DNA from: Elusimicrobiaceae bacterium | GTDB taxonomy: Bacteria; Elusimicrobiota; Elusimicrobia; Elusimicrobiales; Elusimicrobiaceae | Reading direction: 5' to 3' | Length of the DNA: 64,000 nucleotides | Assembly (NCBI GenBank): GCA_045129775.1 | Contig: JBGUOO010000041.1 | Location: forward strand, 1,545 to 65,544 | Part shown: positions 4,919 to 61,898 of the stretch, piece after piece | How positions within the stretch are numbered: the first letter of the stretch is position 1 | Layout: each line of letters opens with the position of its first letter | The notes under the pieces: generated by a model | Told to the model about the DNA's origin: nothing | Databases searched by the model: none | What the model saw: only the letters and a program-made list of their open reading frames with translations | Position numbers and translations under genes: made by a program

Positions 4919-4953
4919 AAAAATTCCCCGGCTTAATCAACCGGGGAATTTTT
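4919..4953. terminator. Bidirectional intrinsic terminator between proS and a convergent pilin gene
   Basis: AAAATTCCCCGG / CCGGGGAATTTT inverted repeat flanked by A/T runs. Confidence 0.8.
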
Positions 4954-5530
4954 AGTTATACTCCACAAAATAGTAATCATATTCGGAGTTATTGGTCGTT
5001 AATTTTTTACCGGATTCTTGCTCGCAAATTTTAGAATCCGGTGCTCCCAAATCTTTGGAATATGCACGACAAACAGTGTGCATAGAACCCGAAGAAGAAT
5101 GAGCAAAACGACGTACATAAGCCATATATGGCTCATTAGATTTAAACACAAAACAAACAGCCGCTTGCGTGTAACCAGCCCCGCTTATCAATTGACATTC
5201 CCCGCCATTAAACGTACACGTAGTGGTTGTACACGACATACCACCCGGCAAATCAATATCTAAGTTTCTAAAATCATCTGTATACGTGCCATTTGCCAAA
5301 TAATACACTTCCTCGGCCTCTTCCAATGTTTTGACAATAGATTTGATGGTAGCATAACGGCTTTTCCATACGGCTACTTGGTATTGTGGCACGGCTACCG
5401 CCGCCAAAATACCAATAATTAAAACAACTACTAAAAGCTCTATAAGCGTAAAACCTTGATGAGCCCCCCTTTTTGTCGGCAAGCCGACGTTTCCCCCGCA
5501 AGGGGGACAAATAACAGCATTATCTTTCAT
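4952..5530 (-). CDS. Type IV pilin (PilE-like), poly-T-promoter class, extended leader peptide
   Basis: G|FTLIELLVVVLIIGILAAVAVPQYQ prepilin motif; SD AGGAG before ATG 5530; in-frame upstream ATG at 5554. Confidence 0.92.
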   Translation of the reverse strand: MKDNAVICPPCGGNVGLPTKRGAHQGFTLIELLVVVLIIGILAAVAVPQYQVAVWKSRYATIKSIVKTLEEAEEVYYLANGTYTDDFRNLDIDLPGGMSCTTTTCTFNGGECQLISGAGYTQAAVCFVFKSNEPYMAYVRRFAHSSSGSMHTVCRAYSKDLGAPDSKICEQESGKKLTTNNSEYDYYFVEYN

Positions 5531-5560
5531 TTTAGTTTCTCCTGTGAACGACATACTAGG

Positions 5561-5588
5561 AGTGTACCAAAAAAAAAAAACAAGTCAA
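5561..5588 (-). promoter_or_regulatory. Sigma70-type promoter with a T12 tract in the spacer
   Basis: TTGACT-TG(T12)GG-TACACT, 16-nt spacer; near-identical copy at 48247-48273. Confidence 0.75.
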
Positions 5589-5684
5589 GCGTTTCCAAGC
5601 CACGGAATTTCCGCGCTGGCCATATACCTTAAATCTTTTAGTTAGTGACCGCGAGAAGCTCGGCAAAAAATGGGACCACGTTTT

Positions 5685-5742
5685 CCCCCTCTCTGCGGTG
5701 CTAACGCACTCGTTCTCCCCCTCCAGGGGGGAGAGAAACAAC
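5685..5742. repeat. BoxC/REP-like GC-rich palindromic element
   Basis: 58 nt identical to 58860-58917; related copies at 5464, 9905, 48322 and 54727. Confidence 0.85.
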
Positions 5743-5821
5743 TGCACCGCACGGGGGTTCAATTAACAACAAAAAAACCCCAAATTGGGGGCTGTTACAG
5801 ATTCAACAACAAGATTTTTAT

Positions 5822-9600: not shown

Positions 9601-9882
9601 CTGTTTTTGGAACCGTACGAAGAATACGGGGTAGCTTGAAATTTCAAGCACCGCACTACTCCAAAGACAGCCGAAATTAAGACGCAAAATGAACGGATTA
9701 ATTACCCGGTTGTTTTGCGTCGAATGTTTGCCACGCAAGTGGTAAACTACGGCTGTTGTATGGAGTACCGTAGTGCGGACTCTTGTATAGTCAGCCGTTT
9801 TTGTTGGTTTCATAAGCAGAAAATTGAAAATGTAAGTCAGGTGTAAACCTGACAATATAAGGAGAAAAACTTATGAAATCAA
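9601..9882 (+). ncRNA. Structured pilin leader, copy A (candidate cis-regulatory RNA)
   Basis: P1 9601-9610/9661-9670; P2 CCGTA-CGAAGAA-TACGG; terminator 9749-9802; start-codon hairpin 9804-9816/9870-9882. Confidence 0.85.
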
Positions 9883-10487
9883 GAAATGTAAGCTTATTAG
9901 ACAACCCCTCACCACGGTGCTGGCGCACTCGTCCTCTCCCACAAGGGGCGAGGAGTATAACCCGCGGGTTTACCCTTATTGAGCTGTTAGTCGTCGTACT
10001 AATTATCGGAATTTTGGCCGCGGTGGCGGTGCCGCAGTATAAACAGGCCGTACTCAAAAGCCGTATGAGTACCATGATGGCCAACGTTAAAACTATCGTC
10101 AATGCACTGGAAGTATATTATTTAGCCCATGGAGAATATCCCAATGATGATGTGACAGCATTAGATATTGAAATCGGCAATTGTTCTTCCGTGGGTAATG
10201 GCACATTTAATTGTACCCACGAAAGCTATGATTACCAGGGGGAATCTTCAAACGCAGTAGGTGGTTTCTTAAAAAACAACAATGGCCTAGCTTATTTACA
10301 ATATCCTTTACATGATATGAATACTGCCAAACAAGGAACCCGTGAATGTTGGGCGGACATAAACAATACGGCAGCTAATAATGTATGCAAATCGTTAGGA
10401 GGCACCCCAAATGGTACCTCTAGCTGGCGAAAAGAAAAGAAACAGAATCATACCACGGGTAACTGGACCATTTATAAACTTCCCTAA
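9873..10487 (+). CDS. Type IV pilin (PilE-like) with a palindromic insertion in the leader peptide
   Basis: G|FTLIELLVVVLIIGILAAVAVPQYK; SD AAGGAG. Confidence 0.92.
   Translation: MKSRNVSLLDNPSPRCWRTRPLPQGARSITRGFTLIELLVVVLIIGILAAVAVPQYKQAVLKSRMSTMMANVKTIVNALEVYYLAHGEYPNDDVTALDIEIGNCSSVGNGTFNCTHESYDYQGESSNAVGGFLKNNNGLAYLQYPLHDMNTAKQGTRECWADINNTAANNVCKSLGGTPNGTSSWRKEKKQNHTTGNWTIYKLP
9905..9953. repeat. BoxC/REP-like palindrome, in-frame inside the prepilin leader
   Basis: Matches 48322-48370 except at 2 positions; encodes PSPRCWRTRPLPQGAR. Confidence 0.85.
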
Positions 10488-18740: not shown

Positions 18741-18869
18741 ATAAAACGGATCCCCCTGCCGCCCGCTACAACCCAGCGGGCGGTTTTTTGTCGGCCCCAG
18801 TATCAAAAGCCCAAATGCAAAATAAGAAGAAATTATGTAGAATGAGATGGTAGTAAATTAAAAATTGAA

Positions 18870-19109
18870 TTGTTTTTGGAACCGTATGTAGAATACGGAG
18901 GACTTTTGGAAACAAAAGTTTTATGCGAGTCCAAAAACAGCCGATTTAGGCACACAAAGGCGACGGCCCGCGTGTGCCGAATGTTTCCCGCACTTGTTGC
19001 GGGAACTACGGCTGTTCCCGTTGGGTTCACTCGCATAAACTCCGGTGGCGACAGCCGTTTTTGCATACACGTTTCCAAAAAAGAATAATAGGAAAAATGT
19101 ATGCAAAAA
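18870..19109 (+). ncRNA. Structured pilin leader, copy B
   Basis: P1 18870-18879/18931-18940; terminator 19008-19062; 12-bp start-codon hairpin 19058-19069/19098-19109. Confidence 0.85.
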
Positions 19110-19643
19110 AGAAATACCCGGCGGGGTTTTACGCTTATTGAGTTGTTAGTCGTTGTGCTTATTATTGGCATATTAGCCGCCGTAGCCGTGCCACAGTACC
19201 AAAAAGCCGTTTGGAAAAGCCGCTTTGCCACGATTAAAAACTTGGCCAAAAGTATTGCAAATGCCGAAGAAGTATATTATTTGGCTAACGGACAATATAC
19301 CAAAGATTGGGACGCGTTGGATATTGGGTTAGACAGCGCTACCTCCTGTACCAACGAAGAAGATGAACATAGTTACTGTTATTTTTCATGGGGATATTGC
19401 CGAATTAATAAAAATCTTACGCAAAACGAGTGTGATATATACCATAACGGCAATCCCATTTTAGGCTATAAATTGATGTTTAACAAGATAAACAGTAACG
19501 CGGCAGGCCAAGCACAGTGCTTTGCAAGGAGTTTCTCCAGCGCAGAAGATATACAAATTAAAATATGCCAAAGTGAAACAGGAAAACAGGAAAATGATTG
19601 GGGAAATATAACTACAGACTATATGGGTTGGAATTATCTTTAA
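19101..19643 (+). CDS. Type IV pilin (PilE-like)
   Basis: G|FTLIELLVVVLIIGILAAVAVPQYQKAV; Cys-containing variable C-terminus. Confidence 0.92.
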   Translation: MQKRNTRRGFTLIELLVVVLIIGILAAVAVPQYQKAVWKSRFATIKNLAKSIANAEEVYYLANGQYTKDWDALDIGLDSATSCTNEEDEHSYCYFSWGYCRINKNLTQNECDIYHNGNPILGYKLMFNKINSNAAGQAQCFARSFSSAEDIQIKICQSETGKQENDWGNITTDYMGWNYL

Positions 19644-22925: not shown

Positions 22926-23036
22926 TAGTATTATTTTATATAATTTCCACCCTTTTTGCACGAAAAATACCCTGAAATCCATTGAAAAAAGTTGTTATTT
23001 AACAAGTTTTTTATTATACTATAGATACAATTTAAC

Positions 23037-23254
23037 CTGTTTTTGGAACCGTATAAAGAATACGGACTCTTTTGATAGCAAAAGTTTGATTCGCGTCCGA
23101 AAACAGCTGTTATAGGCACAAAATAGTGGAACTTATAATCCCACCGTTTTGTGCCGAGTGTTTATCGTTTTGCGATAGGCCACGGCTGTTATTGTAGGGA
23201 GTGCGAATCAACCCGGCAGTAGTGGCCGTTTTTAAATGCGTTTTTCAAAGACAG
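23037..23254 (+). ncRNA. Structured pilin leader, copy C
   Basis: P1 23037-23046/23097-23106; terminator 23182-23233 with several G-U pairs; downstream P1-complement 23244-23254. Confidence 0.85.
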
Positions 23255-23283: not shown

Positions 23284-23787
23284 ATGAAAAACGTAAAAAA
23301 ACAGGGTTTTACCCTTATAGAGTTGTTAGTAGTAGTGCTCATTATCGGTATTTTGGCCGCAGTAGCCGTGCCGCAATATAAACAAGCCGTACTGAAAGCT
23401 CACTTCATAAAAGTGTTTCAAATAGCTCAAAATATGAAAAAAACCGCAGACTTATATTATTTACAAAACGGCCAATATAAAGACGGCCTGCTCACCGAAT
23501 TAGATATTGACTATAAAAAGATATGTAAAGGAGATAATAACGCACTCAAATGCGAGAAAGGATTTGTAATTGACCCAAATCCCACCAATCTTTTTCTCTA
23601 TTATAGCCCAGATATTACTTTTTCCATGGGCTATGTAGCAGCTATGCAAACTTACGAAAATACCCCTAAACAAAACCGTTTTGCGATGCATATCTATTTT
23701 AACCATACGGCACTTTCCAATCAAATAGTTTGTGCTAGTTCAGGGAATGTATCCCTCTGTAAAAAAATGTTAAGTGGAATAAAATAG
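23284..23787 (+). CDS. Type IV pilin (PilE-like)
   Basis: G|FTLIELLVVVLIIGILAAVAVPQYK; SD AAGGAG before ATG 23284. Confidence 0.92.
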   Translation: MKNVKKQGFTLIELLVVVLIIGILAAVAVPQYKQAVLKAHFIKVFQIAQNMKKTADLYYLQNGQYKDGLLTELDIDYKKICKGDNNALKCEKGFVIDPNPTNLFLYYSPDITFSMGYVAAMQTYENTPKQNRFAMHIYFNHTALSNQIVCASSGNVSLCKKMLSGIK

Positions 23788-28341: not shown

Positions 28342-28788
28342 TTATAATGTATCCCGGCTGTTTAAAATGGTATAGGTAATTTTACAAGGCTGAGAAGCCC
28401 CTGCTACGCTTTCCATTTTAGCTTCTACCGTGTATGTAATATTATGTTGTTTGGAAATTTCTACATAACAAGTATGTTTTTGCTTTTTAGGGAATCCATT
28501 GGCATCATTGCCCGATTCGCACCCATAACCGGAATCCGTTGAAGAATCACACATTTGACAAGCCGCTAAATCCCGCGCATAGGCAACCGGCGTTTTAGTG
28601 GCCCAAATAGCGTTTACTTCCGCCATGCAAGACTCAATGACCGATTGCGCCATCATGGTGTGACGTGTTTGGCGGGAAGTAATCGTGCGGGAAAGAGACA
28701 ACCGCAAAATCATAGCAGACATACCGGCTAAAATAGCCGCTACAATCAATACCTGTAACAAAGCCGCACCCCGTTTATTTAACAACAT
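28342..28788 (-). CDS. Minor pilin, PilX/GspK-like
   Basis: RG|AALLQVLIV atypical prepilin motif lacking Glu5. Confidence 0.75.
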   Translation of the reverse strand: MLLNKRGAALLQVLIVAAILAGMSAMILRLSLSRTITSRQTRHTMMAQSVIESCMAEVNAIWATKTPVAYARDLAACQMCDSSTDSGYGCESGNDANGFPKKQKHTCYVEISKQHNITYTVEAKMESVAGASQPCKITYTILNSRDTL

Positions 28789-28802
28789 GGTATTTTCTCC
28801 CT

Positions 28803-29336
28803 TTAGCTGCCTACCGGCTTTATAGCAAAACCGTGCGGCAATATAATTGTTTCGTCCACAATTTCTTTAATGGCCGGGTTTGTATTCATCCCTACCACTA
28901 GTTGTATGTGCAAGATAGCCCCTACATTGTCACTTCCCCCAGCCGATTCGGTATAAAACGAAGGGGAAGCCCAAGAAGAAGTCCCGGATTGGACATAATT
29001 GAGTACTGTTTCGCCGTTACGGGTACAGGTAGCGTTGGCCTGGCAAGTGTATGAAATCTCAGATGTTATCTGATGATCCGGCCCCAACTTAGAGGTACCA
29101 CTTTGCCTTAACGTAATTCCCGTACCGCTTACACTGGCCGATTCCGATTCCCGGATATCTTGGCGAAGCTGACGTAAAAACAAAGAAACTTGGTTGCGCA
29201 ACATAAGCCGCACCCGGCCTACCCCGCTTTCACGCAAAGCGGCGGTGCTCAGGGCCGCCAACGCTACCCCGATAATCCCCACAATCATAACGGCCAGTAA
29301 AATTTCCGTTAATGTAAAACCTTTTTTATTCTTCAT
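28803..29336 (-). CDS. Minor pilin, PilW/GspJ-like
   Basis: KG|FTLTEILLAV. Confidence 0.8.
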   Translation of the reverse strand: MKNKKGFTLTEILLAVMIVGIIGVALAALSTAALRESGVGRVRLMLRNQVSLFLRQLRQDIRESESASVSGTGITLRQSGTSKLGPDHQITSEISYTCQANATCTRNGETVLNYVQSGTSSWASPSFYTESAGGSDNVGAILHIQLVVGMNTNPAIKEIVDETIILPHGFAIKPVGS

Positions 29337-29857
29337 AATTCATACCCGTTACATTTAATGGTAAAAGTAACTTTCAAAGTAGATGTTTCCGCGGAGGTGC
29401 CCGAACAATTATTACATAGCTTGGCTACACGGTTGTCACCACCTTCCCGGTGTTTGGTATAGTCCAAATTAGTAGCAAAGGAGTTCCCGCTACTTATTTT
29501 ATAAGAAAATGCACTTTGCGACGAAGAAGCATCGCAAATTTTTGGCAATAAGCATTTAATATTATGATCTGTTCCAGCCTGCAGTGGGTTGGAATCCCCC
29601 CCGCACAAACCATTGGCCAAACCGCTGGGAAGGCGTGCCTTGGCAAATGAATCATTATTGGTATTAATATAAATTTGCAGTTTATCTTTGGCTTTTTCAA
29701 CGGCCAGGGCCATTTCTTCGCGCATGTCGGGCTGGGTAGATTTACGCGCGGCCGACAGCAATACCCCAAATGCCCCGACGGTCACTACGGCCAAAAGCCC
29801 CAAGGCAATGATACCTTCCAATACGGTTACACCTTTTTTATTGTTTAAAATTTTCAT
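29333..29857 (-). CDS. Minor pilin, PilV/GspI-like
   Basis: KG|VTVLEGIIAL. Confidence 0.78.
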   Translation of the reverse strand: MKILNNKKGVTVLEGIIALGLLAVVTVGAFGVLLSAARKSTQPDMREEMALAVEKAKDKLQIYINTNNDSFAKARLPSGLANGLCGGDSNPLQAGTDHNIKCLLPKICDASSSQSAFSYKISSGNSFATNLDYTKHREGGDNRVAKLCNNCSGTSAETSTLKVTFTIKCNGYEL

Positions 29858-29872
29858 AATCAGTTCCTATGT

Positions 29873-30346
29873 TTAGTCGTCCTCGGTAATTGTCATATCC
29901 CGGTTGACAATAAAAGAACGGGCCGTTTCCGAGCCGGAAACATTTTCGGTCCCCGTTACAAAAACGCCGTCGGTGCGCGGGTCCGACACGGCAAACGTAT
30001 AAGGCAAATCTACAAACATTTTGGGCGAAATATATCCACATCCGAATACAACCGTTGCGCCCCCGCTACAACTGCCCGGAATCCCGGTTAACACTGAATG
30101 CCCCGCCGGACAAGTCACCCCGGATGCATCCGAGCCCGAAAAACTACCCGACGCTAAACAGCCTTTTGTGTCCGTATAAAAAGAGCGCACCGCCTCCGCT
30201 AGTTGCACGGCCGCCGCTTTGGCTTTTTGATAGCGCATTTCACGCCGTACAGACTTAATCAACGGCACCGCAAACGAAGCCACTACGGCAATGACTAACA
30301 ATACAGCTAAAATTTCCATTAACGTAAAACCTTGTTTATTTTTCAT
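29873..30346 (-). CDS. Pilin/pseudopilin
   Basis: QG|FTLMEILAV. Confidence 0.85.
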   Translation of the reverse strand: MKNKQGFTLMEILAVLLVIAVVASFAVPLIKSVRREMRYQKAKAAAVQLAEAVRSFYTDTKGCLASGSFSGSDASGVTCPAGHSVLTGIPGSCSGGATVVFGCGYISPKMFVDLPYTFAVSDPRTDGVFVTGTENVSGSETARSFIVNRDMTITEDD

Positions 30347-30354
30347 AACAATTC

Positions 30355-30846
30355 CTAATTTGGGGTTTTATCAAAACCATCCCCGTTGATTTTTGTACAA
30401 TACGTAAATCCGTCATTGGCACGGCCTTTTCCCTCAAAACATACCCTCACGTTATCTTTGCCGGCGCTTGTAAACCACATATCTACCGAACCGGTACGAG
30501 TGCCGTCGGTATTTTTGGTATCGTACGCCACTTGACGGTATTCCAAAAACCCGCAATCCACCAAATTCTGCACAGCGCCGGGACTCGTAAAACACTTATC
30601 GCGCGGTACCAACAACACAGGTATTTTATTGCTTGACCCGGTTGGGAAAGAGGCAGCACCCGGATATTCCGTATAATAGCGTTGCGCGGCACTTACCAGT
30701 AATAGCGCACGGGACTTAGCATCTTCAATGCGAATATCCGAGGCCGATGCACGGAACGCCTGCGTGGCAAACATGGCCAGTACCCCAATTAAAGCCGCCG
30801 CAATTAACAATTCCATTAACGTAAAACCTTTGTGATTGGCTATCAT
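30355..30846 (-). CDS. Pilin/pseudopilin
   Basis: KG|FTLMELLIAA. Confidence 0.85.
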   Translation of the reverse strand: MIANHKGFTLMELLIAAALIGVLAMFATQAFRASASDIRIEDAKSRALLLVSAAQRYYTEYPGAASFPTGSSNKIPVLLVPRDKCFTSPGAVQNLVDCGFLEYRQVAYDTKNTDGTRTGSVDMWFTSAGKDNVRVCFEGKGRANDGFTYCTKINGDGFDKTPN

Positions 30847-30859
30847 ATATACACCCCGG

Positions 30860-31453
30860 TTATTTACAATCCGTCCCTTTTAAGCGCTCTACACTGCCTT
30901 CTTCCAACATAACCGCCCCTAAATAACAATCTTTTTTAGTACCCGATTTAAGCATACAACCAATCGGCTTTTTAGCACTATTGGTGGGCGATTTACATTG
31001 TTTGACAGCGGCGCTAGTAGAAGTTCCGTTTAATAAGTAAAAACTATACCCTTTGGTATTGGTTAAGGGTTTTAAATATTCAAACTCCGTCAGCGCCCAT
31101 ATAAAAGCTTTGCGTGTATTAGCGTCCGTCCCTTGAGACACTACATATTGATTCCAAGATTGCTTTTTTTCTGCGGTGGTACTGGGGGCCTTGGTTGCCC
31201 AGTTTGTCCCTCCATATTGGATATATGAACCACTGGTAGGCACGGTTGTAATGGACACCCCGGTATTCAGTTTTAAATCCCGCTTTAAGGAGTTAACCGC
31301 ATTACCCAGCGCCAACAGATTACCCAAAGCAGCATGATAATCCCCGCGTTCCTGCATGCGCTTATACGCCGGCACGGCAAATGCAAGCACGCCCCCGGCA
31401 ATGAGCACTACAAACAATACTTCCACTAACGTAAAACCGTATTTCCTACGCAT
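30860..31453 (-). CDS. Pilin/pseudopilin
   Basis: YG|FTLVEVLFVV. Confidence 0.85.
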   Translation of the reverse strand: MRRKYGFTLVEVLFVVLIAGGVLAFAVPAYKRMQERGDYHAALGNLLALGNAVNSLKRDLKLNTGVSITTVPTSGSYIQYGGTNWATKAPSTTAEKKQSWNQYVVSQGTDANTRKAFIWALTEFEYLKPLTNTKGYSFYLLNGTSTSAAVKQCKSPTNSAKKPIGCMLKSGTKKDCYLGAVMLEEGSVERLKGTDCK

Positions 31454-31535
31454 ACAAACTCCTTTGGCACTTACTTAAGTATGGGCCAAAAACAGGCATT
31501 TGTCAAGGGAATTTCCCCTTGTATTTTCCACCCCT

Positions 31536-32756
31536 TTAACCGCCGATTTGAGACAGTTTGAAAATAGGTAAGAAAATAGATGCCACAATAATACCGATCA
31601 GCACACCGACCCCAACAATTAAAATTGGGTCAATAACCGCGGAGAAACGGGCAATAAACTGGTCCACGTTATCGGCATAGAATTTTGCCAATGTTTGAAT
31701 AATGCTGGGCAACTTACCAGATTCTTCACCCATTCTCATCATTTCGGTCATTAGGCCGGGGAAGACCCCCGTTGCCGCAAACGAATCCGAAATGGCCTTA
31801 CCGGCCGCTACGTCCGCACGTACTTGCTTAAGCGCGTTTTGGATAATGACGTTACCGTCAAATGATTCTTCCAGTACGCCTAAAGCATTTAAAATGGTTA
31901 CACCACTGCGTAGCAACGTAGCCATGGTAGAAAGCAAGCGGTCATAGTAAATGTTCTTCAAAAAATTACCGAAAATCGGCATGGTCAGCAAGAACGAATG
32001 CCAGCGTTTGCGGCCGTTGGGAGTGCGAATGTAAAAACGGAACGCAAAGAACAACCCCACCATGGTTAAAATAAGGGCTACCGCATGGTTGGTAATGGCA
32101 CTGGATACTTTTAACACAATAATGGTTAAAAGCGGTAAGGTTAAGTTGAAGTCTTCAAAAATTTGTGCAAACGTAGGCACGATACCCACAATAAAGTAAA
32201 TCAACACGCCCACAGACGCTATACACAAAATGGTCGGGTAGGTAATGGCCGTAATGATTTTGCTTTTCATCCCTTCCTGGGTTTTGGTATAGATAGACAA
32301 CTGCATCAGCGTATCGGCAATTTGCCCGCCAACTTCCCCCGCCTGTACGAGCGACAGCCACACATGGCTAAATGTGCGGGGATGCTGGGCCAACGCCTCG
32401 TGCAAAGATTGACCGCCCGAAATATCGTGCGTTACTTGCATAAGTACCATACCTAACGTCGGGTTAGAAGAATACTGCCCCAACAGGGATACGGCACGCA
32501 CTAACGGCACACCCCCGGCAATCAGGGTGGAAAGTTGTTCGGCAAAAAATGCGAGCACATGCCCCGGTACTTTACCCCCGCGTTTACGGGTGGTCTGCTT
32601 AGAAGAAAAGAGTCCCCCCGTCGCTTCTGTAATATCCAGTACCAAATAACCCTTGTTTTGCAAGGCGGCACGCAAACGGTCTTTACTGTCCGTTGTATAA
32701 GACCCGGTAAAGGTCTTTCCCTGTTCATCTCTTACTTTATATGTATATTTAGGCAT
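31536..32756 (-). CDS. pilC: Type IV pilus/T2SS inner-membrane platform protein (PilC/GspF)
   Basis: QLSTLIAGGVPL, GEVGGQI, YPTIL, GEESGKL, IFLPIF. Confidence 0.93.
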   Translation of the reverse strand: MPKYTYKVRDEQGKTFTGSYTTDSKDRLRAALQNKGYLVLDITEATGGLFSSKQTTRKRGGKVPGHVLAFFAEQLSTLIAGGVPLVRAVSLLGQYSSNPTLGMVLMQVTHDISGGQSLHEALAQHPRTFSHVWLSLVQAGEVGGQIADTLMQLSIYTKTQEGMKSKIITAITYPTILCIASVGVLIYFIVGIVPTFAQIFEDFNLTLPLLTIIVLKVSSAITNHAVALILTMVGLFFAFRFYIRTPNGRKRWHSFLLTMPIFGNFLKNIYYDRLLSTMATLLRSGVTILNALGVLEESFDGNVIIQNALKQVRADVAAGKAISDSFAATGVFPGLMTEMMRMGEESGKLPSIIQTLAKFYADNVDQFIARFSAVIDPILIVGVGVLIGIIVASIFLPIFKLSQIGG

Positions 32757-32780
32757 ATTTTCATCCTTTGCAAACTAATT

Positions 32781-34517: not shown

Positions 34518-34593
34518 ATAAACCCTATTACAACCGCCTTATAGCGTACATACCTGCCCCCAGGGAACTGGGGGCAGGTAAAAACTCTCACAC

Positions 34594-36207
34594 TTATTCC
34601 GCCAAAATAGTCGGCGTGATAAAGATGACTAAGTCCGTCGTGCTCTTGGATTTAGAGCGGCTGGTAAACAACCAACCTAACAGCGGGATGTCCCCAAGCA
34701 GCGGTACTTTGCGCGTTTGATCCGTTTCGCGCGAAGTGAGTAAGCCGCCGATGACAACCGTTTGTCCGTTTTTCACACGCACCAGCGTAGAAGCGGCACG
34801 CGTGATGGTATCCAAAGCAAAGTCAAACCCCGAAGCTACTACATCGGAATACGTAGGTTGTATGTACAAGGTTACGTAGCCTTCGCGGTTGACTTGCGGG
34901 GTTACCTGCAAGGTCAAACCCACCCGTTTACGTTCGGCGGATGTAGTAGTCGTCGCCGTAGCAGTTGTGCTGCCGGAATCGGTTACCGTACGGCCTACGG
35001 TAGCATCCGTAGAGGTGGTAATCGTTGCGGTTTTGTTGTTGAGCGTTACTACTTTGGGTTTACCCAAGTATTTGGCTTCCCCGCGGGTTAACAACGCTTT
35101 GAGGACAATGTTAAATGCGTTAAGGTTGAGTACCCCGGCTTGGTTATCGCTGTTACCGGTGGTAGTGGTAGTCGTCGTCCCGCCGGAAGAGGAAGAACTT
35201 TCGTTTTCCAATTCTTTGGAGCTGGGGAAGATCCAATCCCAACCGTGTAATTTTTGGCTACCATCGTACGTTTTACCATGGAAAAATTCCGAAGTGAGCG
35301 TACGGGAAGGAGCCGTTATCTGCGCCAGTGTACCGTCAGAACCACCATATTCAAACCCAAGGCTTAAACCGCTGGTCTTGCTGACTTCCACAATTTGCGC
35401 TTCAATTAAAATCTGCGGAGGCTTGATATCCAATTCCGCTAAGATGTTTTCCACTTGCGGAAATACTTCCGGCACGTCTGTAATAATCAATTTGTTCGTG
35501 CGCGGGTCAACGGCAATTTTACCCACAGGGGATAACATGCTGCCCACAATGCCCGTAATCGTAGAGCCGGTAGCATACGAATCGCCACCGCCCATACGCA
35601 GATTGTTGGTCATGCCAGATGAATCATAAGAGGTAGACCCACTGGAAAAACCACCGGAGGAATTCCCAGTAGACACATCTTGCGGCATAATGCTGTTCAG
35701 TTCGTTTTGCGCAGAGCCTACCCCTTGCAACGAGATATAGCTAAGCGTATAAATTTTGGTAATCGTGTCCGGCGCATCATTGGAACGCTTGGTTACGACA
35801 TAGCTGTCACTCTTACCAATGCGTTGGTACGCCAACCCATGTACCCGAAGCAGGGTATCTAACGCTTCACGCACCGTTACGCGCGTAAGCGAGGCGGTCA
35901 CTTTCTTATTCGCGAATTCTTCGCTCATAATAAAGTTAATCTTGGCCTGGGTAGTAATACTGTTTAAGAACGCCGATATCGGCACATTCGCTACCCGAAT
36001 GGACACTTTTCTGTCTAAGGGAGAAGAAGTTTCCACTTCCTTATACAGGTCCGTAGCGGTGGACGGAGCAGCTGTTACTTTCACGTCCTCCGTTAAAGCA
36101 ATGGCACCATCACTGGGAATCATTTGGCGTTCCTGCTGGGCAACTGCCGGAACCGTAATCCCCAACGTGACAATACCTGCCAACATTACTGCTAAACGAT
36201 TTGTCAT
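34594..36207 (-). CDS. Secretin (PilQ/GspD family)
   Basis: DPRTNKLIITD, QILIEAQIVEV, VTPQVN, TVVIGGL, KVPLLGDIPLLGWLF. Confidence 0.93.
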   Translation of the reverse strand: MTNRLAVMLAGIVTLGITVPAVAQQERQMIPSDGAIALTEDVKVTAAPSTATDLYKEVETSSPLDRKVSIRVANVPISAFLNSITTQAKINFIMSEEFANKKVTASLTRVTVREALDTLLRVHGLAYQRIGKSDSYVVTKRSNDAPDTITKIYTLSYISLQGVGSAQNELNSIMPQDVSTGNSSGGFSSGSTSYDSSGMTNNLRMGGGDSYATGSTITGIVGSMLSPVGKIAVDPRTNKLIITDVPEVFPQVENILAELDIKPPQILIEAQIVEVSKTSGLSLGFEYGGSDGTLAQITAPSRTLTSEFFHGKTYDGSQKLHGWDWIFPSSKELENESSSSSGGTTTTTTTGNSDNQAGVLNLNAFNIVLKALLTRGEAKYLGKPKVVTLNNKTATITTSTDATVGRTVTDSGSTTATATTTTSAERKRVGLTLQVTPQVNREGYVTLYIQPTYSDVVASGFDFALDTITRAASTLVRVKNGQTVVIGGLLTSRETDQTRKVPLLGDIPLLGWLFTSRSKSKSTTDLVIFITPTILAE

Positions 36208-43925: not shown

Positions 43926-44062
43926 AAAAAATCCTGTATAAAATTTTCTATATTTTAGAAAATTTCACACGGTCAAGCCAAGTAAAAAAACAGACTATTT
44001 CGCAAGCTAAAAAATTATGTTACAATGAAAATGAAGTAAAGAAGTAAAACAGAAAATTTAAT

Positions 44063-44303
44063 CTGTTTTTGGAACCGTACGAAGAATACGGCTTACTTTT
44101 GGAATACCAAAAGTTTGCGCAACGCCAAAGACAGCTGTTTGAGGCATGGAGTAGGTGGAATTGCAAGCCAACTATTTCATGCTTAGTGTTTGCTATCCGC
44201 AAGGATAGCAAGCCGCGGCTGTTATATGTGGGAAAGGTTGCGCAATTCCAGGTATGATAGCCGTATTTTTCGGTTTCTCCAAAAACAGCAAAAAGGAGAA
44301 ATC
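44063..44303 (+). ncRNA. Structured pilin leader, copy D
   Basis: P1 44063-44072/44125-44134; terminator 44215-44270; SD hairpin 44272-44280/44295-44303 overlapping TCCAAAAACAG. Confidence 0.85.
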
Positions 44304-44305: not shown

Positions 44306-44824
44306 ATGAAAAAAGTAGTAAGAGGTTTCACCCTCATTGAGTTGTTAGTTGTTGTTCTCATCATCGGCATATTAGCCGCAGTGGCCGTGCCGCAATATAA
44401 AATGGCCGCCGACAAATCCCGCCTTGCTAATCTGCGTTCAATGGCAAGTGCAGTAGCAAAAGCCCAAGAAGCCTATTATTTGGCTAATGGTACATATACC
44501 CGTAACTGGGAGGAACTGGCCATCTCTTTCCCGGGGAAATTAGGTAGTACCAGTGTTCAGAATAATGTCCTTTCATCAAATGAAGGCTGGATACTTACAC
44601 TTGGATCATATAACAATGTTACAGCAACAAATTCTCACCTTCCGGATATTACAATACATCATTTTTATCCCCACCACCCGGGTGCTCGATACCAAAACAA
44701 ACAGGCCTGCTATGCCTTAGCTACCAATTTGTACGCCGACAAATTATGTAAAAGCTTGTCCTCAAAAAACACATGGGACACTCAAGCAGGCTATGGCAAA
44801 GACAATGTTTACATATTAGACTAA
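44306..44824 (+). CDS. Type IV pilin (PilE-like)
   Basis: G|FTLIELLVVVLIIGILAAVAVPQYK; SD AAGGAG. Confidence 0.92.
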   Translation: MKKVVRGFTLIELLVVVLIIGILAAVAVPQYKMAADKSRLANLRSMASAVAKAQEAYYLANGTYTRNWEELAISFPGKLGSTSVQNNVLSSNEGWILTLGSYNNVTATNSHLPDITIHHFYPHHPGARYQNKQACYALATNLYADKLCKSLSSKNTWDTQAGYGKDNVYILD

Positions 44825-47592: not shown

Positions 47593-48216
47593 TCAATTTA
47601 ATTTGTAATGCACCCAGTTTGAGTTTTCCCATGCCCAAGTTCCCCCCATACTTTGGCAAATTTCTTTTCCCAGTTTATTCTCCGGTTTTGAAGAACAGTA
47701 CCGGTCTCCTTTCTCATTATTAAAACCTGAATTCTCTTTTACAAAGTGCATATATGTAATTTGGCTCGTAGAATCAATAAACTGAACATTAGTAAAACCA
47801 TAATTAAGTACTATAGTGCCAAAATTACAAATATATTTTGCGGTACTTACATTTCCATCTTCTTCACATGATTCCAAAGAAGCAGAAACATCCAAAGAAT
47901 CAAAATCGGTTGCAAAAGTTCCGTTAGCCAAATAATAGGCCTGCTGAGCCTGATAAATACTTTCCACTAGCGAAATCCCTTGATGCAAACGCGCCTTTAA
48001 AACCGCTTTTTGGTACTGAGGCACGGCAATGGCCGCCAAAATACCAATAATCAGCACCACCACCAATAATTCAATGAGCGTGAAGGCGTTGTTGTGTAGG
48101 TTGGGCTTAGCCCAACAATAAACCGCCTCTTTGCCGGCTTGTTTATCAAAGGCCAAAAAGGCTCCTTTGGCGGGGCAACCCCGCCCTACATGGATTACAA
48201 CCTTGTTACTATTCAT
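47593..48216 (-). CDS. Type IV pilin (PilE-like), poly-T-promoter class, extended leader peptide
   Basis: A|FTLIELLVVVLIIGILAAIAVPQYQKAV; SD AGGAG; in-frame upstream ATG at 48240. Confidence 0.92.
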   Translation of the reverse strand: MNSNKVVIHVGRGCPAKGAFLAFDKQAGKEAVYCWAKPNLHNNAFTLIELLVVVLIIGILAAIAVPQYQKAVLKARLHQGISLVESIYQAQQAYYLANGTFATDFDSLDVSASLESCEEDGNVSTAKYICNFGTIVLNYGFTNVQFIDSTSQITYMHFVKENSGFNNEKGDRYCSSKPENKLGKEICQSMGGTWAWENSNWVHYKLN

Positions 48217-48246: not shown

Positions 48247-48273
48247 AGTGTACCAAAAAAAAAAAACAAGTCA
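48247..48273 (-). promoter_or_regulatory. Sigma70-type promoter with a T11 tract in the spacer
   Basis: TTGACT-TG(T11)GG-TACACT, 15-nt spacer. Confidence 0.75.
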
Positions 48274-48321
48274 AGTTTTTTTTAGTTACGACGAGAAATA
48301 ACAACAAATAAACAACGGCAA

Positions 48322-54223: not shown

Positions 54224-54418
54224 GTTTTGGCTCCTTACTTTTTCCGTCGGACAAAAACTACTTGTTATATTATACAAAATCTCGTCGGTAGTCCGGCAAG
54301 GGCCAAAGGACCCAATTAGTTTATAGGCCCGCACAAAACCGCTTGTATTGGGGTACCATAACACCTTATCAAGAAATTATGTTAAAATAGAAAAGAAGTA
54401 AAGAAATAAAAATTTAAT

Positions 54419-54664
54419 CTGTTTTTGGAACTATATGTAGAATATAGAGCGCTTTGGAAGAAACCAAGCACAAAGAAAGTCCAAAAATAGTCGTTAAAAG
54501 GCACGAACGGGTCTCGAGCCCCGCTCGTGCCGAATGTTTCCCTTTTTGCCTAGGCAAAAAGGGAGATTACGGCTGTTTTGCGGGGTTACTTTCTTTGGCT
54601 CTGTATTCCAGCCGTTTTGCATATACTCCAAAAGCAGATATGAAGGAGAAAAGTATATGCAAAA
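54419..54664 (+). ncRNA. Structured pilin leader, copy E
   Basis: P1 54419-54428/54481-54490; P2 with two compensated pairs CTATA/TATAG; terminator 54569-54618; 12-bp start-codon hairpin 54615-54626/54653-54664. Confidence 0.85.
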
Positions 54665-55355
54665 CAAAAATCAAAAGTTGTTTCCTGTCCCCCTTGCAGG
54701 ATGCTTAGCGCACAATGTCGCTTTTACCTCGCCCCTTGTGGGAGAGGATGCCCGCAGGGCAGGTGAGGGGTTAGCCGTTATAGGTCAGACACTTCCTAAC
54801 AGTGTCCCGGTTAAGGGGCATACAGCCGCATTCACCTTAATTGAGCTCTTAGTGGTTGTGCTTATTATCGGCATATTAACGGCGGTAGCCGTCCCGCAAT
54901 ACCAAAAAGCCGTCTGGAAAAGCCGCTATGCCACTATCAAAAATCTAACCAAAAGTTTAGCTGATGCCGAGGGAGTATATTATTTGGCTAATGGGAGCTA
55001 TACCCTCGATATCAGCAAGCTAGACCTAAATATGCCGACGCCTACTTCTTCGGATTCAAATGATCGGTATAGTGTCTTTTATTACCCTTGGGGATTTTGT
55101 GCATTAGAAATAGTAGAAAATACAACAGCAGATGTTCAATGTATATTAAAAGATGAACATCTTTCAACAGATTATTATGACCAACGGTTCCTTGGTTATT
55201 TTACCTATTTTAGCCATTCCAACCGTCTCCCCGGGCAAACTACTTGTGTGTCGTATGGACCGCATACCGCTCTACCTTATATGATTTGTAAAAGTGAAAC
55301 CGGACTATCCGAACCTTCTTACACGCATACCAATTACCTACGTTGGTATTATTAG
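54657..55355 (+). CDS. Type IV pilin (PilE-like) with a palindromic insertion in the leader peptide
   Basis: A|FTLIELLVVVLIIGILTAVAVPQYQKAV; SD AAGGAG before ATG 54657. Confidence 0.92.
   Translation: MQNKNQKLFPVPLAGCLAHNVAFTSPLVGEDARRAGEGLAVIGQTLPNSVPVKGHTAAFTLIELLVVVLIIGILTAVAVPQYQKAVWKSRYATIKNLTKSLADAEGVYYLANGSYTLDISKLDLNMPTPTSSDSNDRYSVFYYPWGFCALEIVENTTADVQCILKDEHLSTDYYDQRFLGYFTYFSHSNRLPGQTTCVSYGPHTALPYMICKSETGLSEPSYTHTNYLRWYY
54727..54770. repeat. BoxC/REP-like palindrome (inverted), in-frame in the prepilin leader
   Basis: Reverse complement CCCCTCACC...CCTCTCCCACAAGGGGCGAGG shares both ends with 9905-9953; encodes SPLVGEDARRAGEG. Confidence 0.8.
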
Positions 55356-58859: not shown

Positions 58860-58917
58860 CCCCCTCTCTGCGGTGCTAACGCACTCGTTCTCCCCCTCCA
58901 GGGGGGAGAGAAACAAC
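58860..58917. repeat. BoxC/REP-like palindromic element
   Basis: Identical to 5685-5742 over 58 nt. Confidence 0.88.
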
Positions 58918-58932
58918 CGAAGGGAAAAGAAA

Positions 58933-59817
58933 TTACTGCATAATTTGGCGGGCTTTGGCGTCGTCGGGTAAGACCAGTTGGGTGGCTAAATCCGCGAGCC
59001 ACACGCCGCACGGGAAGTCCGACGCGTTTAAGTGTTTTTCATCAATGCCGGTGCGGGCCTTGGCGTGGCAAGTTATTTGGTAGGTGCCGTCGGGCAGGCG
59101 TTTAGGAACTAACAAGCGCGCGCTGAGCAAAAACAGCGAGCCCGCGGCCTGATAGGTTTTATTCATATGATAAAAATACGTATCAATTTGGGTGCCCACT
59201 TTGCGTTGCACCAGGGCTTTGGCACGCCGTAAACCGATATCCTCTACCGGTTTGGCCGGGGTGGGCGATTTTTGGGCACTGGCCGGGCGGGCCGCCGGGG
59301 TTTGGACTTGCTCTTCGGGCGTAAATTCTTCCTGCAATGCCAGTTCACGCTCAATTTCGGCCAGGCGTTTTTCGTCGCGCACCGTCGTATAAGAAAGTTT
59401 AATAAGCCCGCTGTTCTTAACCGCGCCGCGCGGGTCCGTGGTGACCTTGGTCACATTGACTAAATTGGAGTGGGTGACTTTAAGGGTAATTTTTTCGGGC
59501 GAATACTTGCGCGCCACGCCATAGGTGCGAAGTTCGCGCTCAAAATTTTTATTAAAATCCAGCGAGATTTCTTCGTGCTCGCTACGCCAGCAACAGGCCG
59601 AAATACAGCTCTCTTGTAAGTCCAGGCGGTCGGCGGCTTCTTGCGGCCAAAAACGCAACTTAAACTGCACGCATGAGTCGTACTGTTTGCCGTCAAAATC
59701 TACACGCTTGGCGGGTACTTCCAGCCACGGCTTGGTGGTGCTGACGCCCGAGTTATTAAGCGGTGTGTAACACCCGGCTAACCATAACGCTATTGCGCCC
59801 AAAATCACTTTTTTCAT
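58933..59817 (-). CDS. Hypothetical lipoprotein
   Basis: MKKVILGAIALWLAGC lipobox. Confidence 0.8.
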   Translation of the reverse strand: MKKVILGAIALWLAGCYTPLNNSGVSTTKPWLEVPAKRVDFDGKQYDSCVQFKLRFWPQEAADRLDLQESCISACCWRSEHEEISLDFNKNFERELRTYGVARKYSPEKITLKVTHSNLVNVTKVTTDPRGAVKNSGLIKLSYTTVRDEKRLAEIERELALQEEFTPEEQVQTPAARPASAQKSPTPAKPVEDIGLRRAKALVQRKVGTQIDTYFYHMNKTYQAAGSLFLLSARLLVPKRLPDGTYQITCHAKARTGIDEKHLNASDFPCGVWLADLATQLVLPDDAKARQIMQ

Positions 59818-59853
59818 ACACTTTATTATATAAGTTTTACGCAAGGAGTTTTT

Positions 59854-61101
59854 ATGAAGACCATTTTGTATTATGTGCAGCAAATCCCCAACTATCCGGC
59901 GCACTACCACACCTTAACCGCGCAGGTCATTTCCGCCGTGGTATTTATCCTTTTACTGATATTATTAGTAAAAGTATTTACCTATATTTGCAATAATTAT
60001 TTGGCACGCGTGGTCAAATTTTTTAAGGCTGAAAAATGGTTTAACACGCTGACCGAAAAGCGGTTTTTTACGGCACTGGGCATTGTGATTGCCGCCATGG
60101 CCGCCATTGATTTCCACCCGATTTTCATCTCCGAGCAAGTGAATTGGATTGCCACTTTTATGGGCAAGCTGACCGGTACTTTTGTGCTGCTGAGCTTTTC
60201 CTACCTGGGGTTTACGTTCTTAAATACGCTGGATAAACTCTATGGTCGCAACCCCAAAATACCGATAAAGGGCCTGGTGCAAGTATTTAAAATTATTTTG
60301 TTTTTGGCCACCGCGCTATTCTTAATTTCCATTTTACTGGGCCGCAAACCGCTCTACATTATTACTGGGTTGTCCGCGTTGGCGGCGGTGTTTTCGTTAA
60401 TTTTTAAGGACCCGATTTTAGGTTTTGCCGCCAGCATTCAGCTAACGACTAATAACCTCATTAAAATTGGGGACTGGATTACCGTGGACTCGGCCGGGGC
60501 CGACGGGAACATTTTGGATATTTCGCTTACCAGCGTACGTGTGCAAAACTTTGATATGACCATTGTCAGCGTGCCGACGTATGACCTGATTTCCAAACCG
60601 TTTAAAAACTGGAACGGTATGTACGAAGCTAAAGCGCGGCGCATCCAACGCAGTATTTTAATTGATGTGGACACCGTTAAATTTTTGGACGAAGAAATGC
60701 TCAAACGGCTTAAAAAAATTGAGCTCTTAAAAGATTATTTGGAAAGCAAAGAAAAAGAAATCAACGATTTTAATGCCAAGCACAACGTGCACGAAAACGT
60801 GATTAACGGCCGGCACTTAACCAACATTGGCACATTTAGACATTATGCCGAGGAATATTTAAAATCGCGCCCGTTTGTGACGCAGGACGACCCCGGTTTT
60901 ACCTTAATGGTGCGCCAGTTGCCACCCAACGCGCAAGGCATTCCGCTGGAAGTGTACTGCTTTGTAAACACGACGGTGTGGACGGCGTATGAGAGTTTAC
61001 AGTCCGACATTTTTGACCATTTATTCTCGGTACTGCCGGAATTTGGGTTGTATGCGTATCAACAACCCAGTGGAAGGAATTTGAGCAAACTGGTGAAGTA
61101 A
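59854..61101 (+). CDS. Small-conductance mechanosensitive channel (MscS family, YbdG-like)
   Basis: FKDPILGFAASIQL, IGDWI, ADGNILDISLTSVRVQNFD, FKNWNGM, LTNIGTFR, QSDIFDHL. Confidence 0.93.
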   Translation: MKTILYYVQQIPNYPAHYHTLTAQVISAVVFILLLILLVKVFTYICNNYLARVVKFFKAEKWFNTLTEKRFFTALGIVIAAMAAIDFHPIFISEQVNWIATFMGKLTGTFVLLSFSYLGFTFLNTLDKLYGRNPKIPIKGLVQVFKIILFLATALFLISILLGRKPLYIITGLSALAAVFSLIFKDPILGFAASIQLTTNNLIKIGDWITVDSAGADGNILDISLTSVRVQNFDMTIVSVPTYDLISKPFKNWNGMYEAKARRIQRSILIDVDTVKFLDEEMLKRLKKIELLKDYLESKEKEINDFNAKHNVHENVINGRHLTNIGTFRHYAEEYLKSRPFVTQDDPGFTLMVRQLPPNAQGIPLEVYCFVNTTVWTAYESLQSDIFDHLFSVLPEFGLYAYQQPSGRNLSKLVK

Positions 61102-61164
61102 TTTTGTTATAATAAATTATCTTACGGATAGGAGGAAATACCTTAACGTAACTACAATTTGAAA

Positions 61165-61350
61165 CTATTTTTGAACCGTATGTGGAATACGGGAATGCTT
61201 CGCAAGGAGCTTCGGACAAGCCAAAAATAGCCGCTTGAGGCACAACAAGGAACGCGTCTTTGTTGTGCCGAATGTTTCCTATTTTTAAATAGGAAACTAC
61301 GGCTATTTATGGGGTTTTCCTTGTCCGAAGCCCGGTAAACAGCCGTTTTT
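61165..61350 (+). ncRNA. Structured pilin leader, copy F
   Basis: P1 CTATTTTTG 61165-61173 / CAAAAATAG 61222-61230 (compensated A-T pair); terminator 61299-61350. Confidence 0.85.
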
Positions 61351-61394
61351 GTTTGCTTGCCGGGCTCTACCTAGTAAACTAAAGGACAAGAAAA

Positions 61395-61898
61395 ATGAAA
61401 AATAAACAAGCGTTTACGCTGATTGAGTTATTAGTAGTGGTGTTAATTATCGGCATATTGGCGGCGGTAGCCGTGCCACAGTACCGAGTAGCTGTTCGCA
61501 AAGCAGATTTGTCGCGCTATATGGCTTTGGTAAGCGCCGTTTATGAAGCACAACAAGTTTATTATCTTGCTCATGGAAAATATTCTAATAAACTTACAAA
61601 TTTGGATATATCTATGCCCATTACAGAGGAATGTACTCTTTCTACAACCAAAGACAGTGAAGATACCTACTATTGTAACTCTGCAAAGATGGGAATATCT
61701 GATTTAGGAACTAGTATCCAGGCGGGTTCTGATGAAATTCGATATGTAAAATTTTTACAAGACCGAACTGCACATGAAATTACTTTTAAACAAGGAACCA
61801 CCTACTGTTTTGCAAAAGGTGATATTTCCAAAAAAGCATGCCAAGCGTTCGGCGGCAACTTCTTAGGTGAAGCTACGTGGGCCTATTATCAACTGTAA
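61395..61898 (+). CDS. Type IV pilin (PilE-like)
   Basis: A|FTLIELLVVVLIIGILAAVAVPQYR; SD AAGGA. Confidence 0.92.
   Translation: MKNKQAFTLIELLVVVLIIGILAAVAVPQYRVAVRKADLSRYMALVSAVYEAQQVYYLAHGKYSNKLTNLDISMPITEECTLSTTKDSEDTYYCNSAKMGISDLGTSIQAGSDEIRYVKFLQDRTAHEITFKQGTTYCFAKGDISKKACQAFGGNFLGEATWAYYQL

Follow-up and report, generated by a model that had tools for sequence, protein, structure and literature searches.

Structured leader RNAs and poly-T promoters upstream of a large, dispersed pilin gene family in a gut Elusimicrobiaceae bacterium

In several bacteria, the expression of individual surface genes is set by the length of a homopolymer located between the −35 and −10 promoter elements; such genes include vlp of Mycoplasma hyorhinis, fim2 and fim3 of Bordetella pertussis and porA, opc and nspA of Neisseria meningitidis. 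Elusimicrobium minutum reportedly encodes dozens of pilE genes. The subject of the present analysis is a stretch of 64,000 nucleotides (nt), here called the window (contig JBGUOO010000041.1 of assembly GCA_045129775.1, positions 1,545 to 65,544 of the forward strand), and the eight stand-alone pilin genes found in it, which belong to a family of roughly 200 genes. The window comes from a gut Elusimicrobiaceae metagenome-assembled genome (MAG) of 1,508,883 bases in 49 contigs (48% GC, 94% complete), which is not that of E. minutum. Each of the eight genes is preceded by one of two cassettes, a leader RNA (cassette L) or a promoter with a poly-T spacer (cassette T). The favoured reading, to which we give a probability of about 0.6, is a modular, two-cassette transcriptional control of about 200 dispersed and intact pilin genes.

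Open reading frames (ORFs) with the FTLIELLVV motif occur 197 times in the genome; contig ends truncate four of them, and the other 193 are full length. Ninety-four have the leader upstream, 71 have the poly-T promoter, 18 lie at contig edges, 14 have neither element and none has both; genome-wide, no poly-T promoter was found upstream of any leader. These counts are lower bounds, because the 49-contig MAG breaks within pilin cassettes. An nhmmer search gives 102 leader copies and a purpose-built covariance model, the E-values of which are rough, gives 103. Leaders situated at most 400 nt upstream of a motif pilin number 94; seven of the remaining eight are at contig ends and one precedes a pilin with a variant N-terminus. 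The relaxed promoter pattern TTGNNN-(0–3 nt)-T≥8-(1–3 nt)-TAnnnT matches 82 sites in the genome, 71 of them upstream of pilins and nearly all others at contig ends. The orphan cassettes at contig ends (seven leaders and about ten promoters) are roughly equal in number to the 18 edge pilins. Five of the 14 pilins with neither element have a leader variant without helix P2 that possesses the 1:2/2:3/3:4 and X:X′ layout described below; these variants, located on contigs C6, C19, C39, C18 and C46 of this genome (G000), keep P1/P1a/P1b and the terminator logic and are missed by the covariance model (R1). In two further pilins, an inserted repeat has displaced the poly-T promoter, and the rest have mostly divergent N-termini and plain promoters. 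In the window, six pilins have the leader element, two have the poly-T promoter and none of the eight has both (Table 1). This is the division that an earlier note on the window had proposed, and it extends to the whole genome, where at least 170 of the 197 pilins carry one element and none carries both, rather than most of them lacking either.

A degenerate pattern search found eight FTLIE sites in the window, compared with 0.03 expected by chance. The mature parts of the eight pilins start with FTLIELLVVVLIIGIL(A/T)A(V/I)AVPQY and are 159–174 residues long; the cleavage and methylation motif G/A|F-x-x-x-E is present in the pilins, E5 being invariant. Pfam N_methyl (PF07963) scores above the cut-off in all eight, and TIGR02532 does so in all four window pilins scanned against NCBIfam. 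Sequence matches among solved structures (type IVa pilins, geopilin and GspG) span only the first 60 or so residues. The AlphaFold2 model of the protein encoded at 19101, with a predicted local distance difference test score (pLDDT) of 89.7, has a 52-residue α1 helix (residues 12–63) followed by a β-sheet domain; its best fold matches in the PDB are gonococcal pilin structures 1ay2 and 5vxx, with probabilities of 0.99 and 0.94 and TM-scores of only 0.36–0.44. By sequence and modelled fold, the eight genes are type IV pilin-like genes with a class III signal peptide, the products of which may be incorporated into filaments. The C-terminal domains have 19–45% identity (median 27%) and contain two, four or six Cys residues; in the first 72 nt, the median number of differing positions is 14.5, and none of the differences alters an amino acid. 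The earlier note had described eight intact, stand-alone pilins with a common N-terminus, synonymously diverged N-terminal codons and divergent Cys-bearing C-domains, and these data bear it out. Its statement that the genes have unrelated neighbours and mostly end at a convergent gene also agrees with the annotation. Housekeeping genes flank the pilins (ProRS, LpxK, a class II aminoacyl-tRNA synthetase of the Asn/Asp/Lys type, UppS, PEPCK and an aminotransferase), and a convergent downstream ORF is apparent for seven of the eight pilins from the ORF list, Pfam having confirmed the neighbours of 4952 and 19101. Only 9873 differs, with uppS downstream of it in the same direction. A strict hairpin with a T-run is located 3′ of the stop codon in three of the eight.

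The prepilin leader peptides of four window pilins are long (26–58 residues), with in-frame, GC-rich palindromes or hairpins, similar to repetitive extragenic palindromes (REPs), between the start codon and the cleavage site (positions 9905–9953, 54727–54770, 5464–5509 and 48100–48200). The matching REP type lies upstream of poly-T promoters (5685–5742, 48322–48376 and 58860–58917), and many contigs of the assembly end inside REP-like repeats. The near-universal Gly before the cleavage site is replaced with Ala in three of the window pilins (Table 1) and in about 30 genes genome-wide, roughly 15% of the pilin family.

The leader is about 205 nt long, with a median pairwise identity of 58% among 102 copies. 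In a MAFFT alignment of 60 copies, 92% of the cells are paired; none of 500 shuffles reaches the observed pairing values, and sliding the 3′ partners lowers pairing from 92% to about 40%. Helix P1 (CUGUUUUUGG:CCAAAAACAG) is paired in 98% of cells, compensatory CG-to-UA changes are seen in hairpin P1a, and hairpin P1b is variable. P2 (14 base pairs, bp) and P3 (9 bp) covary throughout; the apical loops of P1b and P3 are GNRA-type tetraloops. X:X′ is a long-range helix of 9 bp, all nine pairs of which covary, with 14–35 double changes each and all four Watson–Crick types. The 3:4 stem is followed by U5, and the terminator stem and the U-run are conserved. G-U cells number 328 and A-C cells 44, which places the pairing on the sense RNA strand.

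Helices 1:2, 2:3 and 3:4 are mutually exclusive and are paired in 90–98% of cells; region 2 can pair with region 1 or 3 and region 3 with region 2 or 4. Helix 2:3 is paired in 90% of cells and in about 97% for its eight core pairs. With X immediately 5′ of region 2 and X′ in the terminator loop, X:X′ and 2:3 form one long antiterminator. According to constrained folding, the energy of the antiterminator minus that of the terminator is −1.7 ± 3.7 kcal/mol, and the antiterminator is favoured in 35 of 53 parsed leaders. The element has two features expected of an attenuator, an intrinsic terminator between promoter and ORF and a mutually exclusive antiterminator helix. The distance from the leader end to the F codon (the first codon of the mature pilin) is short (median 78 nt), so that transcription of the pilin must pass the terminator. 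The leader was also considered as an independent small RNA gene; this was rejected, there being no room for a second promoter before the pilin.

The P2 loop contains a 6-nt palindrome in 50 of 67 parsed leaders, compared with 4.0 expected and a maximum of 11 in shuffles. The hexamers include TAATTA, TTGCAA, TTATAA, TTCGAA, TCATGA and others; an example is found at window positions 9694–9708 (CGGATTAATTACCCG). The layout of the loop (2–3 nt, palindrome, 1–2 nt) resembles the dimerisation loop of human immunodeficiency virus 1, and the palindromes suggest that leader RNAs may kiss or dimerise. No match to the leader was found in Rfam, either in gathering or in E-value scans, and neither GEMM-I nor GEMM-II was matched; no conserved leader ORF is apparent, the length of P3 varying. 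The leader model matches 21 of 24 congeneric species and none of 16 genomes of other genera in the order. In named records, the core motif occurs in MAGs of Elusimicrobiaceae, ‘Elusimicrobium sp.’ and ‘Ca. Avelusimicrobium’ from rumen, horse, deer, bird and human gut. Literature searches returned no publication in which Elusimicrobia and pilins are connected with an RNA element. The leader constitutes a structured RNA family, hitherto undescribed, that reaches about 100 copies per genome.

The window poly-T promoters have the form CTTGACTTG-T12-GGTACACT, and all three T tracts in the window are exactly 12 nt long; an independent promoter scan found TTGACT-16-TACACT, with TG before the −10 element, at 5588–5561. 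The form in the genome is TTGAYT-TG-T12-G(G/T)-TAnnnT, with several kinds of −10 element and with −35 variants TTGACT (44 copies), TTGATT (29) and TTGCAT (6). Among the 82 promoters, the run is T12 in 71, T13 in three, T11 in three, T10 in two, T9 in one and T8 in two, and the spacer is 16 nt in 70. The genome contains 112 A/T runs of length 8, 11 of length 9, two of length 10 and 74 of exactly 12; 71 of the 74 runs of 12, and all runs of 10, 11 and 13, are in pilin promoters. In the largest promoter subfamily, the 45 nt downstream are 80% identical, compared with 38% between subfamilies, and the 40 nt upstream are unrelated; pure T12 has been retained while the flanks diverged by 20–60%. A silent tract could not be kept at one exact length by selection, and the retention of T12 therefore points to a probable selected functional length. 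The purity of the tract exceeds the need of a 16-nt spacer, which suggests selected mutability or a sequence-specific role. Because the last T and the following G form the extended −10 TG, a one-base slip should tune the promoter, not abolish it. With T12, 71 promoters possess an uninterrupted homopolymer of at least nine between −35 and −10, one of the marks of a phase-variable promoter; the tract was seen to vary in length only among paralogues, with off-modal runs of T8–T13 in 11 of the 82 promoters here and T10–T15 in a congener, G008. A hairpin masking the Shine–Dalgarno sequence in the 5′ untranslated region (UTR) of poly-T genes was rejected, since CUCCU would lie upstream of the likely transcription start, as placed from the −10 spacing only.

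The third T12 tract of the window (58740–58751, within 58728–58757 on the minus strand) has a GGGACTTG flank, TATACT and a non-canonical hexamer spacing. The ORF behind it (57631–58695, 354 residues) does not encode a pilin and has no Pfam or NCBIfam match; this tract may be a decayed or re-used poly-T cassette.

The two classes do not correspond to two pilin subfamilies, an explanation that is rejected by tree shuffles and by the closest pairs. A tree of 162 classified pilins requires 52 changes of class, and shuffled labels give 51.7 ± 3.2. Only four of the ten closest pairs (≥60% identity) share a class, and the two closest (about 72%) are leader/poly-T pairs. In three leader/poly-T pairs, nucleotide identity is at the random level (about 30%) upstream, 63–83% from the F-codon window on, and drops after the stop codon. 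The homology begins exactly at the prepilin cleavage site; therefore, the 5′ cassettes have been swapped as modules. The unit of exchange therefore comprises the promoter, the 5′ UTR and the signal peptide, with the junction where the conserved helix begins.

In the genome set, mature pilins have 132–186 residues and Cys counts that are overwhelmingly even; the identity of a C-domain to its best paralogue is 42% in the median and reaches at most 72%. An identical 24-residue N-terminus occurs in 124 copies, and all 124 DNA sequences are distinct, the median number of synonymous differences across the 72 nt being 14. Such near saturation at synonymous sites under strong protein constraint means that each copy is kept by selection and that recent gene conversion is excluded; the family is strongly diverged and under purifying selection. 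Assembly artefacts and recent duplicates are ruled out, as all copies differ in DNA, and decaying pseudogenes are ruled out by the 193 intact genes among 197 and by the strong purifying selection on the N-terminus. The median spacing of pilin genes is 5.4 kilobases (kb), and only four pairs, all divergent, are less than 1.5 kb apart. Mature pilin coding sequence takes up 6.3% of the genome and leaders a further 1.3%; the roughly 200 pilin genes with their control regions amount to about 8%.

This repertoire is the largest among the 41 relatives examined, in which congeners have 5–135 copies and other genera of the order one to three; over all congeners counted, the number of pilins spans 5 to 190. 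The strict poly-T form was found in only two of 26 congeners, with 65 matches here and 104 in G008. About 85% of the listed poly-T sites of G008 are T12 and the others T10–T15, and this genome has only two leaders. A third species, G019, has 104 pilins, four leaders and promoters with shorter T runs (T7–T11, and one A11). Given this spread of cassettes over congeners, the two-class split is a feature of the present lineage, and the genus uses several cassette types. Exact-protein look-ups of two poly-T pilins, in four start-codon variants, returned no record. Using a wobble-tolerant motif of LpxK, the gene of which lies beside the 4952 pilin, a metagenome scan found 19 contigs (L197–L215) with a maximum identity of 84%, none from the same species; one has a downstream poly-T promoter and none has a pilin within 900 nt. 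The pilin between LpxK and ProRS, with its cassette (window 5561–5822), is absent downstream of LpxK in 18 of these 19 contigs, from which it follows that pilin cassettes are gained and lost at terminator-side junctions of housekeeping genes. The swings in pilin number and the turnover of sites fit an arms-race family.

The features of the window are listed in Table 1. Besides the eight stand-alone pilins, the window contains four operonic N_methyl pilin-like genes behind those of the secretin, GspE and GspF, which corrects the picture of eight pilins. The genome has one prepilin peptidase gene (Peptidase_A24, PilD) and a MutS gene. Four GGDEF matches were found, two of them contig-edge fragments. 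MshEN is a module that binds cyclic di-GMP (c-di-GMP); its presence in the assembly ATPase, together with the GGDEF matches, makes control of piliation by c-di-GMP likely, and c-di-GMP is a candidate for the leader input, nothing beyond that. An 875-residue protein (41298–43925, minus strand) has an O-antigen ligase-like Wzy_C domain and TPR repeats. Pilin O-oligosaccharyltransferases (PglL/TfpO) carry a Wzy_C domain, and this protein could therefore be a pilin-glycosylating enzyme.

Table 1. Pilin genes, upstream cassettes and pilus machinery in the window. F codon, first codon of the FTLIEL segment in the translated ORFs; C41, numbering of the contig.
Feature	Window position	Strand	F codon	C41 position	Family or database match
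Pilin, poly-T class; 26-residue leader peptide with hairpin-forming DNA; mature start at the F codon	4952..5530	-	5452-		PF07963, TIGR02532
Poly-T promoter TTGACT, 16-nt spacer (TG + T12 + GG), TACACT, extended −10 TG; T12 at 5569-5580	5561..5588	-			
Leader RNA copy A: P1, P1a, P1b, X, P2, P3, X′, intrinsic terminator	9601..9802	+			
Pilin, leader class; REP-like palindrome within 32-residue leader peptide	9873..10487	+	9969+		PF07963
Leader RNA copy B	18863..19072	+		20407-20616	
Pilin, leader class; AlphaFold2-modelled protein	19101..19643	+	19128+		PF07963, TIGR02532
Leader RNA copy C	23030..23243	+		24574-24787	
Pilin, leader class	23284..23787	+	23308+		PF07963
Pilus/type II secretion system-type machinery operon	28342..36207	-			Pfam, NCBIfam
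Four operonic N_methyl pilin-like genes and two small ORFs without Pfam match	28342-31453	-			
GspF/PilC platform protein	31536-32756	-			
GspE/PilB ATPase with MshEN domain	32781-34517	-			
Secretin	34594-36207	-			
Leader RNA copy D	44056..44278	+		45600-45822	
Pilin, leader class	44306..44824	+	44327+		PF07963, TIGR02532
Pilin, poly-T class; 43-residue leader peptide with hairpin-forming DNA; Ala at −1	47593..48216	-	48084-		PF07963
Poly-T promoter, form as at 5561..5588; T12 at 48255-48266	48247..48274	-			
Leader RNA copy E	54412..54628	+		55956-56172	
Pilin, leader class; 58-residue leader peptide with inverted REP-like element; Ala at −1	54657..55355	+	54831+		PF07963
Leader RNA copy F	61157..61360	+		62701-62904	
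Pilin, leader class; Ala at −1	61395..61898	+	61413+		PF07963, TIGR02532

In the mechanism proposed, each gene would be a separate transcription unit wedged among housekeeping genes, with an old, diverged pilin body behind one interchangeable 5′ cassette. Cassette L would consist of an extended −10 type promoter and the leader RNA, which is predicted to adopt either P1 with the intrinsic terminator or the long antiterminator, in which 2:3 is stacked under the gene-specific X:X′. The terminator is only about 45–80 nt from the predicted coding start, and the pilin would be made only upon readthrough by RNA polymerase; readthrough is presumably set by a putative trans signal that acts on the common conserved core. 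Cassette T would be a sigma-70-type promoter with a 16-nt spacer made up of TG, an uninterrupted T12 and G(G/T), followed by a short 5′ UTR. T12 would be the selected working length, and a pure 12-mer should slip at an appreciable rate, probably yielding occasional alleles with expression shifted up or down. Pilus diversity would thus come from differential transcription and not from expression-site recombination, promoter inversion or retro-mutagenesis. The likeliest biological purpose is that leader genes are regulated as a block, the poly-T genes being mostly on, and that some stochastic variation is superimposed. One core is common to about 100 leaders, which predicts a common signal and co-regulation rather than the choice of a single gene; strict one-at-a-time pilin choice is less likely. 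Several observations weigh against two-cassette control as outlined here. Helices 1:2, 2:3 and 3:4 are nearly invariant, so that the switch itself is unprovable by covariation. The terminator stem encloses a large structured loop, and a simple terminator scan makes no call. The weakly resolved pilin tree limits the inference that class is random; as resolution is poor at such divergence, it is chiefly the closest pairs that carry the absence of a class signal. A T12 length this uniform could be taken to argue against frequent switching, and with an extended −10 TG the promoter may not respond to the −35 spacing.

The same data bear on the rival explanations. Stochastic switching gene by gene, through bistable leaders and slipping T tracts, would leave one or a few of the roughly 200 pilins expressed per cell and serve antigenic or phage-receptor variation. 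The uninterrupted T12 between −35 and −10 in 71 promoters speaks for this, as do the off-modal lengths (11 of 82 here, T10–T15 in a second species), the presence of every genomic A/T run of 10, 11 and 13 in these promoters and the purity of the tracts despite diverged flanks, a hallmark of contingency loci. The nearly isoenergetic leader folds, with a gene-to-gene spread of 3.7 kcal/mol, count in its favour, and antigenic variation would be well served by a constant assembly helix bearing hypervariable C-domains with disulfide bonds. However, 87% of the tracts are equal in length, and T12 as the functional state implies about 70 genes in one state together; one leader core leads one to expect one signal, no feedback element enforcing exclusivity was found, and MutS is present. 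Such switching is possible, and we regard it as rather doubtful. The earlier note had proposed surface variation through the expression of intact genes and not through pilS conversion; its premise of intact genes without conversion is well supported, whereas strict one-at-a-time switching is argued against by the shared leader core and the uniform T12. Pure block regulation would instead make the pilins co-expressed adhesins or secretion substrates that broaden gut binding, the leader a riboswitch or protein attenuator for one signal (e.g. c-di-GMP) and T12 a structural element of the promoter, either a rigid spacer or the binding site of a factor, in place of a mutable switch. It accounts for the conservation of the leader core in about 100 copies and in 21 of 24 congeners, the conservation of T12 in two species despite flank divergence and the occurrence, in a third species, of pilin promoters whose T-rich spacers have other lengths; GGDEF proteins and an assembly ATPase with an MshEN domain are present, and pilin-like expansions are known in other phyla. 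A role in spacer length or bending, however, would not require the homopolymer to be perfectly pure, about 13% of loci have off-modal lengths, and the leader matches no known riboswitch class; pilin counts of 5 to 190 in congeners and the absence of the LpxK-adjacent pilin in 18 of 19 contigs resemble arms-race turnover. We consider this explanation unlikely.

Variation by recombination, whether of the Neisseria pilE/pilS type, by invertible promoters or by diversity-generating retroelements, with the many copies as donors, could use the shared N-terminal coding segment as a site, and the cassette swaps at the F codon show recombination in the past, over evolutionary time. Against it, all copies are full length and each has its own start, promoter and signal peptide. 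A tblastn search of 193 C-domains against the pilin-masked genome, made for silent cassettes, returned only about six extra loci, all full-length or contig-edge genes, and no 5′-truncated cassette. Reverse transcriptase RVT_1 (PF00078) has no match in the genome, the controls being positive; a search for dedicated site-specific recombinases found only two tyrosine recombinases of the Phage_integrase family (293 and 319 residues, the size of XerC/D), serine recombinases not having been searched for. The earlier note had reported no silent copies, recombinase or reverse transcriptase in the window, and this holds for the genome, apart from these two proteins. Of the features sought for pilE/pilS systems, diversity-generating retroelements and invertible promoters (silent cassettes, a reverse transcriptase and dedicated tyrosine recombinases), none is seen, and the N-terminal codons, near synonymous saturation and without identical copies, exclude ongoing gene conversion. 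We therefore judge recombination-based variation to be extremely improbable. With no silent cassettes, no reverse transcriptase and two tyrosine recombinases, pilus diversity must come from the transcription of intact genes. A more speculative idea, which we think very unlikely, is that the roughly 100 leaders form an RNA-level network, in which nascent leaders of the same loop class would kiss through their P2 hexamers and couple their termination; together with T12 slippage, this would provide a pilin choice free of recombination and of proteins, similar to allelic exclusion.

The layout is uncommon for a surface repertoire, with complete genes scattered among housekeeping genes and two swappable control cassettes. 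No denser set of homopolymer-spacer promoters than the poly-T set is known to us. Should expression prove stochastic or exclusive, this would be a recombinase-free variation system in abundant, almost unstudied bacteria of the vertebrate gut; if block regulation is true, the leader is a strong candidate for a new class of riboswitch or attenuator. The census provides a concrete list of loci for the question of why Elusimicrobia have so many pilins.

Compared with known systems, the poly-T promoters resemble those of vlp, fim2/fim3 and porA/opc/nspA in that each surface or fimbrial gene has its own promoter with a homopolymer between −35 and −10. They differ in number (about 80 promoters in a 1.5-Mb genome versus 2–7), in the T12 found in 87%, which runs into the extended −10 TG, and in the second, RNA-based cassette in the same family; a dependence of expression on tract length is putative here. 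Like trp-type attenuators, PyrR- and T-box-type leaders and riboswitch platforms, the leader has three exclusive helices, a hairpin with a U-run before the ORF and energy-balanced folds. Unlike these systems, it has no leader peptide and no Rfam match, its approximately 100 copies per genome all precede pilin genes, a hypervariable long-range X:X′ locks the antiterminator and the P2 loop contains a self-complementary hexamer. The c-di-GMP riboswitches of Clostridioides difficile pilA1 and the multicopy GEMM-I elements of Geobacter are likewise cis-acting RNAs upstream of pilin genes with many copies per genome, but the present leader matches neither GEMM-I nor GEMM-II and is present in several-fold more copies. 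Neisseria pilE/pilS likewise has a large set of variant pilins with a constant N-terminal assembly helix; in contrast, all copies here are complete and bear promoters, with no silent cassettes and no single expression locus. The capsular loci of Bacteroides with UpxY/UpxZ are also found in gut commensals and comprise many surface loci with their own promoters and a long 5′ leader that governs readthrough. There, however, promoters are inverted by site-specific recombinases and exclusivity is enforced by locus proteins, whereas neither an invertase nor a locus-encoded factor was found here, where complete pilin genes are combined with one of two 5′ cassettes.

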